Shown: positions 27,001 through 42,000, numbered from the stretch's first letter. The stretch: 64,000 bases of DNA from an uncultured bacterium (GCA_963844965.1 CAWJQC010000008.1:32001-96000); one strand, 5' to 3'. Program-made: the numbers.

Positions 27001-30000
27001 ACCAGTATCATAACCGACGACCTCGTATCCTTTTCCCATCAGAACTTCGGCAAGCACCGAGCCGATGTAGCCCAAATTCCCGGTCACTAAAATTTTCTTA
27101 TCCATACCAATAAATAATAGATGAAAGTATTGTACCGTAAATCGTTTTATCCATCAATTGCTTTCTAATCAATAGCTTCTAACCACTCGACGGGCGTTTT
27201 CATATCAAGTCCCATGTGCGGCCGTTCGGTATTGTAGTAGTGAAGAAAATCGGGAATCTCCTTGCGCCACGCGGCAAGAGTGTTAGGGATACGTCGTAAA
27301 CAGTCCCGCTGAAGCGTTTGGATGAACCGTTCCACATGGCTGTTATCTGTTGGCGTCCGTACGCGCGAGTGGCGATGTGAAAATCCCTGATGCTCGATGA
27401 CCTTGGTAAACCATTTTGAAAACTCCCCGCCACGGTCGGATTGGATTGTGACGAAAGGAAACGGAGCTGCCGCTTGCGCTTGCTGGACGAACCGTGCGCT
27501 TAAGCGGCTTGAGACCTGGGCGGCTGGCCATGCCCACGCCCAACGGGAACATACGTCGATCAAGGCGTACGCATGGAGGTGGTCCATGGCAATACCTTCT
27601 TGCATTGAATCGATCTCAACCAATATGCCTGGCTTTGTGGGCATGGGACGCGGAAGATACTGGTGCCACTTCTTCCATTTTGAATATCGCGTGATACCGT
27701 GGCGTTTGAGTGTACGCTTCACGGACAAAAGGCTAACGGCAATCTTTTCCTCTTCTAGCCGGTGATGGACGATCTCCGCGCATTGGTCCCGTTCGCTGCG
27801 AAGTGCAAGGATGCGGCCAATGACCGCTCGGTCGAGTTCGCGTGGATGATGGTGCGGCCGCGATGAAAGCGTCGGGATGACAAGATGACCGCCTTCGCCA
27901 TATTCCGTGCCCCGCTTCACCCATAACCGGACCGTACAATGGCTGAACCCATACTTCCGAGCGGCCTTGCGGATACTCCACCCGGACTGCGTGAGCGCGA
28001 CTGCTTCCGCCCGTACCCGGGGCAGATGGGGATTCTTGGTGTATGCCATGTACATAGCTTTGCAAATTCTTGGGTGGTTACAAGCTATTGAACCACGACA
28101 TCAATTTGACATTCAAAAGAAAATAGTTTATACTTTCAGCAGTTCTGGACAATTATTCACGCGAGGATTTGCCTTGAGATACGAGAAGAACGAACGCATA
28201 TTGCTCTATAACGAATTGAAGGATGTGACGTGGGAAGAAGGGAAGCATGTACGGCTGGCTGTCTTGCTGTACCGCCATGCGATCGTGATAGCTTGTTCTA
28301 ACCGCGGGCGGCAAAAGGCGGAGTTCGCGAACGGAGAATTCCCTTATTTCGCATATATAGAGACCGTGAACCAGAAACGCGAATGGTCCGGCCGCGGCAA
28401 CAATATTGTGCCGGTCTTGCCAGACGGACGTCTGCTTATGGTCATAGAGGAACGTCCCCCGCACGAGCGCTATCCCGAGAGAGTTAGCAAGGTTAGGCTC
28501 TCAAACGGAAATATTATTACTCTCGGAACCATGAAATCGCTGGAATTTCCAGGCGGCGGCATTGAACCGGGAGAAAAAATAACGCTTGGGATTTTACGCG
28601 AGCTCGAAGAGGAAACCGAAATTCCCGATCAGAGAGTGCTGCTCTACCGAAGAGTGCACCCCATCATAACCTTCGGTTCCGATGTCGCTTCCGCCAATTT
28701 CCAAGCGGTGGTCTACCTCTCCAACCTCCGTTTTGAAAAATGGGCGGAGAACGACGGAGGCCTCCGCGTGGTAGCCCTGACTCCAAGAGAAACGGAATAC
28801 AACGTGGAAACCGGTGCCATCTCAAGCGGCCAGGCAGCCATACACGGCTGGCAGTTCTATAAAGAAGTCGTTGAAGCGAGAGCAAAGCCAGCCGTTATGC
28901 AGCGCCTGATAGACCGCGGCTACTTGTCCATGGAAGAAGTTGAGCTGTGTAAATAACGGCGCCGTCGGCGCGCGGGAGATCCTTCGGAATCGCACCACCC
29001 GCGCGCTTTTTTTATTTTCGCCGTGCGTCTCTTTTGTCCAGATACTTAAGCACCTCCTCCCCCGAAATCAAATCTCCTTTTTTGTAGTATCTTTCCATCT
29101 TCTCAAACTCTTCAGTTAAAAGCTCGCTGCGCGTTCCTTTTTGAATCCCCTGCGAGTGAATAATATGCTCCTCCCATCTCTGCGACATGCCGACAAAGTT
29201 GTATGCCAGAACACGCGCTTTTTCGCGAATAAGTGCCGTTACTGTCGTCACGAAGGCGCGTAACTGATGAAGCGGCGGGGCAACGATATATAAAGTTCTC
29301 CATTTACTTTTCTTCGCGTAACGCACGATTCCCCATGCCTCCGCGTGTGTGCTCGGCGGAAAATCAGAAGAAATCTGTACACCGACTATCTTCCTCTCGG
29401 GAATACCGAGCTTGACGAGTTTCTTCTTCCAGTTCCCGAATCCCGGATACCCATAACCTTTCTTCGCTCCACAGATGGCAATGCGCTTCACCCGCCCAAG
29501 TCTCCAGGCAAGCAATGCGGCCGCGAGGACCGAGGACTCGTTGTCCGCGGTTTCCCCGAAAAGATAGGCGGCATCTGCTGCGCGCGCCGGCGAGGTGTCA
29601 CAGAGAACACGCGTCACCAACTCGTCGAGCTCGAAATACGTGGAGCGAACGCCAGTCGCAGTTCTCATTCCTCCTTCTTTTCGATAACTCAAGCATTTTG
29701 TCGCTCAGACTTCCACGGACGGCAAGTTCTTCGGCTCAACAAGCGGCCAGTTCGCGTCTTTATCTGAAATCACCGCCGGCACCTTGAACGGCCACTCCAT
29801 TTTGAAATAGGAGTCGTTCCAACGTATGCCGTGTTCGTGCTCCGGTGAATACGTCTCGCTCACAAAATATTGCAGTTCGGAGTTGTCTTCCAGAACCTGT
29901 ATGCCACTAGCGCAGCCCTTCGGGCACAAAACCATGTTCTTTTTTTCCGGTCGGAGCTCCACCGAAATCCATTGGCCGTAAGTCGGAGAATTCCTGCGGA

Positions 30001-39000: not shown

Positions 39001-42000
39001 GCGATGCCGCGCGTTATTTTTCTCGTGACAAACGTCTCGCCGCGCCGCTCCGATTCGTGATTGAAAAGTATGCCGTTCACGGCAAAAATTCCGTAGGCCT
39101 CCCTGTAATTCCTAACCGTATCAAAAGCGAACACTTTCGCGACCCCGTAAGGACTGCGCGGGTAGAAGGGAGTGTTCTCATTTTGCGGCGGCGGCGAAGC
39201 TCCAAACATCTCGGAACTCGACGCCTGATAAAATCTTATTTTTTTGCCGACGTGTTCCTCGTAGTCTTTTATCGCCTCCAACATCCTCAAAACTCCCAGA
39301 CCCGTGACATTCGCCGTATATTCCGGAATATCAAAAGAAACGCGCACATGCGACTGCGCACCTAAGTTGTAGATTTCGCCCGGTTGGATCTTATAAACAA
39401 GCCTTCTTATCGTGTTGGCGTCGGCGAGGTCGCCGAAGTGCAGAATCAGCCGCCGCCCGGATTCGTGCGGATCCTGATATATATGGTCCAATCTCCCGGT
39501 GTTAAAAGTTGAAGCCCGGCGCATGATGCCATGTACTTCATATCCCTTAGCGAGCAACAATTCGGTGAGATAAGAACCGTCCTGACCGGTTATGCCGGTG
39601 ATGAGAACCTTAAGCATAGCGTAATCTATAGCACATTGTTAAAAACAGTCAAGCCATCGCGGCTTCGCGATGCGGAACGTAAAAATGGCATCCCCAGAAT
39701 AATCGCAAGTTATTTATTTTTCCCCGATCCCGATGAAGAGGCCTGGCTTCGTATCTGCGCCAAATACTGATCAAGCGCCTGCGGCGTTCGCGTGTCGCTG
39801 GGCCATAGATTCATAATTTCTTGGGCGGTACTAATAGTGTCCTTCACGTCGCCCTCCATCCGGTAAACGTCAAACAGGCCGAAAAGAAACTGCGGCCGCT
39901 CGGGTCCGAGCGCCAATCCCTGACTGTAGTATTCATACGCCTCCTGAAGATATTTCACTTCATTTGTTTTGGTGTAAGCCACTTCGTTGATCGCTCCCAA
40001 AATATAAAGATTCTGCTCAAAACTCATACCCCGCCCCCGATCAACAATCGGCTTATAATAACTCTCAATGTAATCAACCATCTCCCCTATCGATTTCTGA
40101 TCGCTATTTTGCTGAACGCTTCCTAAAACTATGTTTGCGATATTTCTCACCAGTTCCTCTTGGCCGATCGGCGACCAATAATCAAGCGGCACCGATACCT
40201 TTTTCTCGAATTCCGAGAGGGAGCGGGCGGAGTTTAAATTCCTCAGGGTGTCTATAAATGTCTGCGACTTAACAAGAGGCCGAAGATTGCCTATGTAGGC
40301 GATGCACAACAAGAATGCCGAGATTAAAATCCCGATGATTTTTTTAAGCGTAGGATTCATTATTGTGTAAATATAAATAATAATAACCAAAGGCAAAAAA
40401 CAGGAAAAGATTCACGTACATCGGCAGGACGTCAAAGATGGCAACGCCCTGAACGAGGTAGCCGATGGGCAACGATATCATGAGGGCCCTGACGATCGGC
40501 GAATGCTTCGTGGGCGACGATTCGGCTTGCCTTACGGCGTTAACCGCTTCAGCGCCATTTTTTCTGAGTGCTCCCCAAAAAACAGCGGCAAAAATACTGA
40601 GATAGCTCAACAAGCCCAAAATTCCTGTTTCGGACAAATAATCAAAGTAAATGCTGTGAGCCCGGTCAAACCATGTTTCCGAACTCGTGCCCGGAATATA
40701 GTGGCGCGGGTTGAAATACTTATCAAAAACCGAGCTGAAATTTTCCGCTCCCCAGCCCAAAACCGGCCTCTCCAAAAAACCACGCCACGCCGAACCCCAA
40801 GTCCAAAAACGAGTACTTGTTGTTGGATCGGTGAGGTTGACGCGCCCGGAACCCACCATATAAGCTCCGAGGACAACGGCGAGAACCTGAAATCCCAACA
40901 AAACCCACCAGAGATATTTCCTCTGGCGCGCAAACGCAATCAACACGGCCGTAAACATCACATAAAGAGATAGGGCGACGAGAGAGAAACCACCTAGCGG
41001 CATGTCAAACATCCGGCCGCCCGGCAGGTTCTGTACAAAAACACTGTTCCTGTAGCGCACGAGCACGCTGCCCGCGATAAGCAGAAAAGCAAGTATGCCG
41101 AGCGAGAATGGGCGGAATTTCGGCATTGCGAAACCCAAATATATGAGGAACGTCAAAATTGCCACAATAAACCCCAAAAACGCTCCGCGCGTTTGGCTGA
41201 GCATGAAGAAAAAGAACAACGCCGCAACTAACGCTATCCAGCCAATCATCACAAGTGTCTTCCTGCGTTTTGCGCTTGTCGCCCAGAGGTACGCCGCGTA
41301 GAACATCGCGAACATCAGATACGGCGCGACATATGCCGGATTTCCTAACGAACCCTGAATGCGCAAATTCGGGCTTACAATCTTGCTTAACCAACCACTT
41401 GGCGCCGTACCGCCCTGGAATGGGCTGATAAAACTATTGGCCCAGCCCAACTGGGCAAAAACGCCGTAGAGAACCAAGAGACCGGCCGCGACAAGTGAAA
41501 CCTTAAAAATGGCGCGCCAATCGTTCTCCTTTTTTAACAATAAAACGAGCAGGACGAAAAATACGTAGTAGTGAAGCATCTCAAAGCCGCCCTCACCGCG
41601 TTCGTAATTTGACCAAAAAGCCGCGTGCGGGTCGTAAGCAAAAATTGAAGAGAGAAGAAAAACAAAAACGAAAAGCGAGACGGCGATGAAAACCGGTTTC
41701 TTATAGACATCTTTTACAAGAGCTTCCACTTCTCCGTCTCTGGACTCAAACGCCCACCAGAGAACAAAAAATATGAGCGCAAGTTCAACCGAAAATCTGA
41801 AAAAGTAATCTTTTCCGCCAATGAACGGGAAAAAGGTTGAGGTCATCACGACAACCACGCTAAAAACCGCGAGATAGAGGTAATATCTCGCCACACCAAG
41901 CAATCTCGGTTTTTGCCAGAGACCAAATAAACCGATAACGCCGAATATTATTACCGAACCGGCCAAGGTCGGGATACTGCCAAAGCCCATCGCTATGAGA

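Follow-up and report, generated by a model that had tools for sequence, protein, structure and literature searches.

In the route proposed for GDP-virenose synthesis in Coxiella burnetii, Gmd, the 4,6-dehydratase of GDP-mannose (CBU0689), is joined by a GMER (CBU0688) and a TylCIII-like methyltransferase (CBU0691), with activity demonstrated for Gmd only (PMC3204966, PMC3539893). The catalytic residues of E. coli GMER are S/T107, C109, Y136, K140 and H179 (PMC3539893), and among enzymes of heptose modification Cj1427 is a GDP-heptose C4-dehydrogenase (PMC10680097). Here we examined a stretch of 64,000 nucleotides from an uncultured bacterium (GCA_963844965.1 CAWJQC010000008.1:32001-96000; hereafter the window, whose coordinates are used throughout). 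The stretch is part of a surface-glycan locus in a genome of the candidate phyla radiation (CPR)/Patescibacteria, assemblies of which contain the nearest relatives of the window proteins. In the region from 39617 to 22933, two sugar-nucleotide modules probably meet. Module A, gmd-nudix-fcl1-fcl2-GT10...CMT_31587, extends from 39617 to 31587; module B opens with CMT_30285-RmlC, extends from 31514 to 22933 and takes in 655-2454 and probably 19485-19970. The division into two modules is based on a comparison with 160 related loci, cited by L numbers, and the most informative genes of the region are two C-methyltransferases (CMTs). CPR bacteria live attached to host cells and, to our knowledge, almost nothing is known of their surface glycans; the locus predicts that such a surface carries fucose together with two sugars bearing methyl branches. 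The genes that define the two modules are listed below; SDR denotes a short-chain dehydrogenase/reductase.

38562..39617, minus strand: gmd, predicted canonical GDP-mannose 4,6-dehydratase, 351 amino acids (PF16363, 449 bits; TIGR01472)
38072..38539, minus strand: Nudix hydrolase, weakly Gmm-like, 155 amino acids (PF00293)
37092..38016, minus strand: fcl1, Fcl-family paralog with one frameshift, split into open reading frames (ORFs) 37681-38166 and 37092-37808
36170..37102, minus strand: fcl2, predicted GDP-L-fucose synthase-type epimerase/reductase, 310 amino acids, true start at 37102
35083..36123, minus strand: GT10 fucosyltransferase-like glycosyltransferase (PF00852, 71.7 bits, gathering cutoff 23.9)
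31587..32846, minus strand: CMT_31587, TylC3-type and Gmd-linked sugar C-methyltransferase (PF08421, PF13489, PF08484)
30285..31514, minus strand: CMT_30285, TylC3-type sugar C-methyltransferase of the kind found with the heptose cassette (PF08421, PF13489, PF08484)
29705..30262, minus strand: RmlC-like 3,5-epimerase (TIGR01221, 166 bits, cutoff 155.75)
26056..27105, minus strand: SDR_26056, Cj1427-like candidate GDP-heptose C4-dehydrogenase (best PDB match 6vo6, 111 bits)
24902..26077, minus strand: fusion of an HddC/GmhB-like nucleotidyltransferase and a HAD phosphatase (Pfam domains)
22933..24879, minus strand: SDR_24016 (atypical, FxxxK) and SDR_22933 (second Cj1427-like protein), from Pfam and PDB matches
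655..2454, minus strand: GmhA-like isomerase (655-1254) and HddA-like GHMP kinase (1384-2454), from tblastn and Pfam

Gmd and the two Fcl paralogs

To judge whether Gmd and the Fcl proteins are of the canonical or the heptose type, we compared their bit scores against solved structures. Gmd passed the equivalog cutoff of TIGR01472 (508.8 bits, cutoff 415) and gave 323-432 bits against eleven solved GDP-mannose dehydratases, compared with 96.8 bits against the C. jejuni GDP-heptose 4,6-dehydratase 7us5. The protein shares 53% identity with E. coli Gmd and keeps the ASSSEMFG (Ser-x-Glu) and Y157GVAK161 motifs, the latter containing the catalytic Tyr157 and Lys161 in E. coli numbering. Judged on these features it belongs to the canonical GDP-mannose 4,6-dehydratases. 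No SDR of the locus resembles a GDP-heptose 4,6-dehydratase (DdahA/DmhA/WcbK), the other SDRs matching 6vo6 or generic epimerases and lacking the glutamate.

The best PDB matches of Fcl2 are all GDP-L-fucose synthases (201-238 bits), whereas four C. jejuni entries deposited under that same name (7anh, 7anc, 7m13 and 7cxt) gave 118-154 bits. Of the latter, two are heptose C4-reductases, MlghC and DdahC sharing the codes 7ANH and 7ANC in one order or the other, and 7m13 is presumably Cj1428. Fcl2 is 36% identical to E. coli Fcl, retains the full Thr-Cys-Tyr-Lys-His set and scored 299 bits against NF047922, below the equivalog cutoff of 500. From its residues and best matches, Fcl2 is a complete 3,5-epimerase/4-reductase of the GDP-L-fucose synthase type.

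Fcl1, once its frame is repaired, is 57% identical to Fcl2 and scored 157-205 bits against fucose synthases versus 106-111 bits against the DdahC/MlghC/7m13-type heptose reductases. Its Ser-Tyr-Lys triad is intact, with threonine at the Cys109 position and glycine at that of His179; the acid/base pair used for 3,5-epimerization is therefore not kept. In a neighbor-joining tree of 122 aligned sequences (120 homologs plus Fcl1 and Fcl2 of the window), 57 lacked the Cys/His pair and 56 of these formed one clade with Fcl1. Since intact relatives reach 80% identity and the sequences form a single conserved clade, the loss of Cys/His in Fcl1 is not random decay. Fcl1 is thus, as far as residue patterns and phylogeny go, an atypical Fcl-family protein and belongs to a distinct Cys/His-less clade, a large group annotated as ‘GDP-L-fucose synthase’, probably in error, as it lacks the epimerase residues.

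As located by tblastn of intact homologs, the frame of fcl1 changes at ∼37776-37804, where the sequence reads GAGTTCACAACCC and has no homopolymer, and the public record has the same break, with only the 215 amino acid C-terminal part present. At least seven frameshifts occur within ∼17 kb of the window, several of them in essential housekeeping genes. The sites are in RNase Y (43662-43682), iPGM (44327-44341), RNase J (at least two, at ∼50080 and ∼50600) and the FkbM-like gene (34400-34700); one break shortens a TTT homopolymer to TT, and at another GCGCC contains an additional base. As the genes for RNase Y, RNase J and iPGM are likewise broken, assembly error is favored over decay, and the breaks in fcl1 and the FkbM-like gene are probably assembly indels rather than pseudogenization.

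Two other explanations of the split genes were considered and ruled out. A programmed frameshift in fcl1 does not fit with intact orthologs that are single ORFs, with the lack of a slippery homopolymer, or with the broken housekeeping genes. An alternative genetic code does not account for breaks that are true frame changes and not in-frame stops.

The Nudix protein encoded between gmd and fcl1 found its best NCBIfam and PDB matches in GDP-mannose mannosyl hydrolase, both of them weak: NF011963 gave 50 bits (cutoff 146) and 1rya 46.7 bits, and identity to E. coli Gmm is 32%. In an alignment made by eye of this weak match, the QHDD of E. coli Gmm, whose catalytic histidine is His124, reads QSSE in the window protein. 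The position of the gene is shared with L081, L082 and L086. The GT10 protein carries the H. pylori FucT motif YKFxLxFEN....GYVTEK and scored 69 bits over the conserved motif against H. pylori alpha1,3-FucT (2nzw), and homologs of it lie near Fcl genes in L083 and L094. By family it is fucosyltransferase-like.

An initial annotation of 29705-39617 had named gmd, two genes of the Fcl family and one each of the Nudix, GT10 and RmlC-like kinds, all of which are present on the minus strand at or near their predicted positions. The GDP-fucose branch it proposed agrees with the canonical Gmd, with the full catalytic set of Fcl2 and with the GT10 gene that follows. Both Fcl-family reductases were recovered as well, the first of them not as one gene but as two ORFs separated by the frameshift. 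Its likening of a gmd-gmm-fcl order to the colanic-acid module was mistaken, as the E. coli order is gmd-fcl-gmm. The two CMTs, the GT4 gene, the FkbM fragments, the fcl1 break and the insertion sequence (IS) described below were absent from it.

The C-methyltransferases and the heptose cassette

Both CMTs are complete in their Zn-ribbon (PF08421), S-adenosylmethionine methyltransferase and C-terminal (PF08484) domains. The two genes are 72 bp apart and their products ∼30% identical. CMT_30285 gave 177-215 bits against solved structures, with 215 bits for the mycarose 3-C-methyltransferase 4rv9.

The neighborhoods of their relatives were compared within 8 kb. A genome scan with CMT_30285 yielded 80 loci, and neighbors were counted for the relatives of at least 43% identity (n = 34). 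Nearby were an HddA-like GHMP kinase (25/34), the HddC/GmhB-type nucleotidyltransferase/HAD fusion (22/34), an RmlC-like gene (22/34) and an SDR_26056 homolog (19/34), with a Gmd-family gene at only five of the 34. For CMT_31587, we counted the neighbors of the metagenomic relatives of at least 56% identity (n = 46): Gmd-family genes were found at 36, a GHMP kinase at one, and neither SDR_26056 nor GmhA homologs at any. Seven dehydratase genes adjoining CMT_31587-type genes were tested against NCBIfam. Six of them, from five loci with CMTs 56-63% identical to CMT_31587, matched TIGR01472 alone (297-541 bits, two exceeding the cutoff of 415), while the seventh, from L154 (CMT 53% identical), matched dTDP-glucose/LegB 4,6-dehydratase models instead. 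Below ∼56% identity to CMT_31587, the neighboring dehydratase turns to the dTDP-glucose type. CMT_31587 and CMT_30285 would thus represent two orthologous groups parted by context, GDP-6-deoxyhexose for the one and GDP-heptose for the other; genomic context implies GDP-linked substrates for both, and it is from this context that we infer the substrates. The Fcl1-type gene immediately adjoins a CMT_31587-type gene in L085 and L094.

The RmlC-like gene was assigned to the heptose cassette by gene context, as it comes after a CMT_30285-type gene in L002, L003, L008, L014, L024, L025 and L027. The protein itself scored 108-132 bits against dTDP RmlCs, compared with 42-45 bits against the heptose epimerases DdahB/MlghB/Cj1430, and in sequence it does not bear out the heptose epimerase proposed initially. 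The related loci share a near-fixed order, GHMP-GmhA-SDR_26056-NTP/HAD-CMT-RmlC-SDR_24016, often followed by CmcI, which we observed in Woesearchaeota, Thermoplasmata, Saccharibacteria and other CPR, Gammaproteobacteria, Nitrospirae, Deltaproteobacteria, Planctomycetes, Verrucomicrobia and Omnitrophota. Within the window, SDR_26056 and the HddC/GmhB fusion continue the cassette on the far side of the IS and a second Nudix gene.

Among the proteins of the cassette, the best NCBIfam matches were gmhA at 98 bits (cutoff 209), HddA at 144 bits (cutoff 600) and GmhB at 159 bits (cutoff 178), with a second GmhB model at 118 bits. For the nucleotidyltransferase half of the fusion, HddC (78 bits, cutoff 300) comes after three other models, among them one for mannose-1-phosphate guanylyltransferase, which scored highest (103 bits). 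SDR_22933, like SDR_26056, has 6vo6 as its best PDB match (91 bits). In place of the Asp/Ser-Glu of 4,6-dehydratases, SDR_26056 (ASSQSMYG) and SDR_22933 have Ser-Gln/Cys-Ser; as the dehydratase glutamate is lacking from both, no dehydration at C6 is expected and the 6-OH is probably kept. SDR_24016 (24016-24879) and its 17 homologs, from loci in the range L002-L045, have a conserved Phe where the Tyr of YxxxK is expected: the motif reads FxxxK in 15 and I/L/SxxxK in three, with Tyr never found, and a G(S/T)CWEY motif is present in 13 of the 18. In the open-access literature we found nothing relevant on C-methyl heptoses, or on a C-methyltransferase in a GDP-heptose pathway.

The ORF listing and profile searches indicate that minus-strand genes run uninterrupted from 39617 to 29012. 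A promoter and terminator scan of 28900-40500 returned sites no more frequent than in shuffled sequence and so did not inform operon boundaries. Four loci, L081 (GCA_018971305.1), L083 (from a Liptonbacteria assembly), L086 (from groundwater) and L087, share the order RNaseY-WzyC-unknown (∼215 amino acids)-gmd-(nudix)-fcl1type-fcl2type. L086 is collinear with the window on through CMT-CMT-RmlC-unknown-nudix2, its orthologs of the two methyltransferases being 76% and 66% identical. Relative to L086, the window has GT10, FkbM and GT4 genes inserted between fcl2 and the methyltransferases, an inverted second Nudix gene, and the IS at 27159-28111.

Other genes related to heptose or to the cassette were noted in the window. 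Split transketolase genes (N and C halves, 20531-22220) lie beside the heptose cassette, as they do in L008 (Thermoplasmata) and L020 (Sungbacteria), and may supply sedoheptulose-7-phosphate or a longer ketose. A WbuC-family cupin (22460-22936, plus strand; TIGR04366, 107 bits, cutoff 42) adjoins SDR_22933, a pairing also present in L003, L017 and L029. An ADP-heptose-type branch at 6707-11278 comprises an RfaE-domain-I-like kinase (291 bits, cutoff 345), an ADP-glyceromanno-heptose 6-epimerase-like SDR (243 bits, cutoff 274.6) and a heptosyltransferase of family GT9 with a GT1-like domain joined to it, and the same trio is found in L085. At 142-1275 on the plus strand, the longest ORF has no family match, the real gene there being the minus-strand GmhA-like isomerase, so gene calling based on ORF length is misleading in this window.

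The proposed two-module pathway and its alternatives

In module A, Gmd would form GDP-4-keto-6-deoxy-D-mannose, which Fcl2 would turn into GDP-L-fucose, and the GT10 enzyme would transfer the fucose. In a second branch CMT_31587 would C-methylate the same 4-keto intermediate, probably at C3, and the Cys/His-less Fcl1-type enzyme would reduce C4 without epimerizing, to give a GDP-C-methyl-6-deoxyhexose, in parallel with the virenose route proposed for Coxiella; the Nudix enzyme may trim the GDP-sugar pool, like Gmm. In module B, the Cj1427-like SDR_26056 would oxidize C4 of GDP-heptose without dehydration, CMT_30285 would C-methylate the 4-keto-heptose and the RmlC-like enzyme would epimerize it, after which one of the remaining SDRs, the choice among them being conjectural, would reduce C4 to yield a C-methyl-branched heptose retaining its 6-OH. 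As predicted from sequence, the likely products comprise GDP-L-fucose, a C-methyl-6-deoxyhexose resembling virenose and a C-methyl heptose with the 6-OH kept. What the analysis establishes is family membership, the patterns of catalytic residues and the counts of neighboring genes; the substrates, the positions of methylation, the stereochemistry of the products and the final reductase are inferred from these. We consider this two-module explanation, taken whole, to be reasonably probable.

Several observations count against it. The manB and manC genes of GDP-mannose synthesis are absent from the 64-kb window, and the heptose activation genes all fall below their NCBIfam equivalog cutoffs. PDB 6vo6 is presumably, but not certainly, the C4-dehydrogenase Cj1427. 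As SDR_24016 lacks the catalytic Tyr, no particular SDR can be assigned to the last reduction in module B. With fcl1 frameshifted in the assembly, module A may have lost the activity of its second branch here; and L083 and L087 carry an Fcl1-type/Fcl2-type pair with no C-methyltransferase nearby, so the Fcl1-type enzyme has no strict need of one. In L086 both CMTs and RmlC are in the gmd-fcl operon, and since there is no heptose cassette within 10 kb, both could act on a 6-deoxyhexose there. Finally, all characterized TylC3-family enzymes act on dTDP-sugars (PMC3539893).

The initial annotation pointed to 6-deoxyheptoses, with Gmd, the RmlC-like protein and the Fcl-like proteins acting on GDP-heptose as do DmhA/DdahA/WcbK, DdahB/MlghB and DmhB/DdahC/MlghC, respectively, to give GDP-6-deoxyheptoses. 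GDP-heptose genes do lie in the same window, and Fcl1, without epimerase residues, would fit a reductase-only enzyme beside a separate RmlC-like epimerase. However, canonical membership, which the initial annotation had itself named as the refuting outcome, was found for both Gmd, which is above the TIGR01472 cutoff and favors Gmds over the heptose dehydratase (323-432 versus 97 bits), and Fcl2 (201-238 versus 118-154 bits); taken together, Fcl1 and Fcl2 gave 157-238 bits against fucose synthases versus 106-154 bits against DdahC, MlghC and 7m13. The gmd-fcl-fcl block recurs in relatives without adjoining heptose genes, the heptose cassette has a Cj1427-like C4 enzyme of its own, and SDR_26056 and SDR_22933 lack the dehydratase glutamate. 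A 6-deoxyheptose route through the Gmd and Fcl homologs is therefore very improbable. Three additional SDRs and GDP-heptose genes, cited in its favor, are real but lie outside 29705-39617, at 22933-27105, 655-1254 (GmhA) and 1384-2454 (the HddA-like kinase). The expectation of heptose modification itself survives in part: the RmlC-like gene and the neighboring CMT travel with GDP-heptose genes (34 loci), although the modification had been assigned to the wrong genes.

If instead both CMTs and the RmlC-like enzyme worked in sequence on the Gmd product, they would give a doubly modified 6-deoxyhexose (for example with C3 and C5 methyl groups) to be reduced by an Fcl paralog, and the heptose pathway would be separate and unmodified. 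The gene order of L086 and L088 speaks for this, with gmd, nudix, fcl1type, fcl2type, CMT, CMT and RmlC co-directional and no heptose cassette within 10 kb, as does the 72-bp spacing of the CMT genes in the window. We nevertheless regard it as unlikely, given that the CMT_30285-type gene and RmlC stand inside the heptose cassette in most of the 34 loci, across many phyla, with Gmd-family genes nearby in five, and that in the window SDR_26056 and the fusion directly carry on the cassette beyond the IS and second Nudix gene. Somewhat less likely still is an ordinary GDP-L-fucose module and nothing more, in which Fcl1 is a decaying, functionless duplicate and the CMTs serve dTDP- or CDP-sugar pathways encoded elsewhere. 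The frameshift and the two lost catalytic residues of Fcl1 are in keeping with such a view, as are the dTDP-sugar substrates of the characterized TylC3-family enzymes and the dTDP-glucose-type dehydratases beside lower-identity relatives of CMT_31587. Yet the Fcl1-type clade is large and conserved, with intact members of up to 80% identity and the Ser-Tyr-Lys triad kept, and the frameshifts in RNase Y, RNase J and iPGM point to assembly error; moreover, no RmlA or RmlB gene is present in the window, and CMT_31587-type genes (at least 56% identity) are linked to the Gmd family in 36 of the 46 loci.

Returning to the two-module explanation, a broader claim may be drawn from the comparison of loci, which we offer more tentatively, as a possibility rather than an expectation: that the widespread eight-gene cassette makes a C-methyl-branched heptose and, jointly, that the Cys/His-less Fcl clade and the GDP-specific CMT make virenose-like sugars in CPR. 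The eight genes encode the HddA-like kinase, GmhA, the Cj1427-like C4-dehydrogenase, the HddC/GmhB fusion, the TylC3-type CMT, the RmlC-like protein, the FxxxK SDR and a CmcI-like methyltransferase, and the cassette is distributed over CPR, several lineages of archaea and six or more further phyla of bacteria. The comparison yields enzyme sets with which to test the long-unfinished virenose-type pathway and to seek C-methyl heptoses, a possible new class of sugar.

Other genes of the window and comparison with known systems

The remaining features of the region and its upstream flank are as follows.

39710..43793, minus strand: upstream synteny block of an unannotated 228 amino acid protein, a Wzy_C-domain protein and RNase Y (frameshifted), from Pfam; order kept in L012 and L081-L088
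34163..35090, minus strand: FkbM-like methyltransferase, three ORFs through two frame changes (PF05050 in the last fragment only; frames from coordinates)
33159..34118, minus strand: GT4-family glycosyltransferase (PF13439 and PF13692, weak)
29012..29692, minus strand: conserved 226 amino acid protein (no Pfam or NCBIfam match), with homologs 59-60% identical at the same position in L086/L088 and L004
28216..28956, plus strand: second Nudix gene (PF00293), 43% identical to the L086 Nudix gene, which follows the same operon co-directionally
27159..28111, minus strand: IS with rve transposase at 27165-28055 (Pfam rve and helix-turn-helix), interrupting the heptose cassette

Homologs of the GT4 gene adjoin GT10 and Fcl genes in L094. 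In the upstream block, the Wzy_C (O-antigen ligase-like) protein and the unannotated protein of 210-228 amino acids (39710-42125) are invariably found between RNase Y and gmd in L012 and L081-L088, and the pair may form a conserved unit for glycan ligation or protein glycosylation. A second copy of the IS (53287-54239, ∼954 bp, rve-family transposase) is in direct orientation and 99.6% identical to that at 27159-28111; this pair, together with the inverted Nudix gene, suggests recent IS activity and IS-associated rearrangement. At 11379-14153, within the glycan locus, are a NodU/CmcH-type carbamoyltransferase, a PD-(D/E)XK protein and an SxtJ-like protein. A carbamoyltransferase gene (70% identical) and an SxtJ-like gene also lie beside a CMT_31587-type gene in L113, a context that hints at O-carbamoylated sugars. 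Further along the window, 54714-58427 encodes a class I aminoacyl-tRNA synthetase of 1237 amino acids (tRNA-synt_1, Anticodon_1, DUF5915) with a His_Phos_1 domain inserted at residues 554-719.

With the colanic-acid module of E. coli (gmd-fcl-gmm-wcaI-manC-manB) the window shares Gmd, an Fcl with the same catalytic set, a small Nudix protein and a fucosyltransferase, encoded in one co-directional block. In contrast to that module, the Nudix gene of the window precedes fcl, there are two Fcl paralogs, one of them without the Cys/His pair, the transferase is of family GT10 and not WcaI-type, manB and manC are not adjacent, and a C-methyltransferase is included. The virenose route proposed for Coxiella places the same three families side by side, namely Gmd, an Fcl-family reductase and a TylC3-type CMT on GDP-4-keto-6-deoxyhexose. 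The Coxiella GMER retains Cys109 and His179, however, whereas the window has a separate Cys/His-less paralog beside the canonical one.

The likeness to the capsular heptose enzymes of Campylobacter jejuni lies in SDR_26056 and SDR_22933, both with 6vo6 as best match. Compared with those enzymes, the predicted pathway of the window adds a TylC3-type CMT, lacks a DdahA-like dehydratase, has an epimerase of dTDP-RmlC lineage and includes in SDR_24016 an FxxxK motif instead of YxxxK. Both CMTs have the three-domain architecture of TylC3, TcaB9, KijD1 and the mycarose 3-C-methyltransferases, but their context implies GDP-6-deoxyhexose and GDP-heptose, not the dTDP-linked 2,6-dideoxy or amino sugars. 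The gmd, fcl2 and GT10 part of the locus is ordinary. What departs from the ordinary is the Cys/His-less Fcl clade, the group of CMTs in a GDP context and the cassette that joins heptose genes to a CMT, and this novelty consists of new combinations of known enzyme families.

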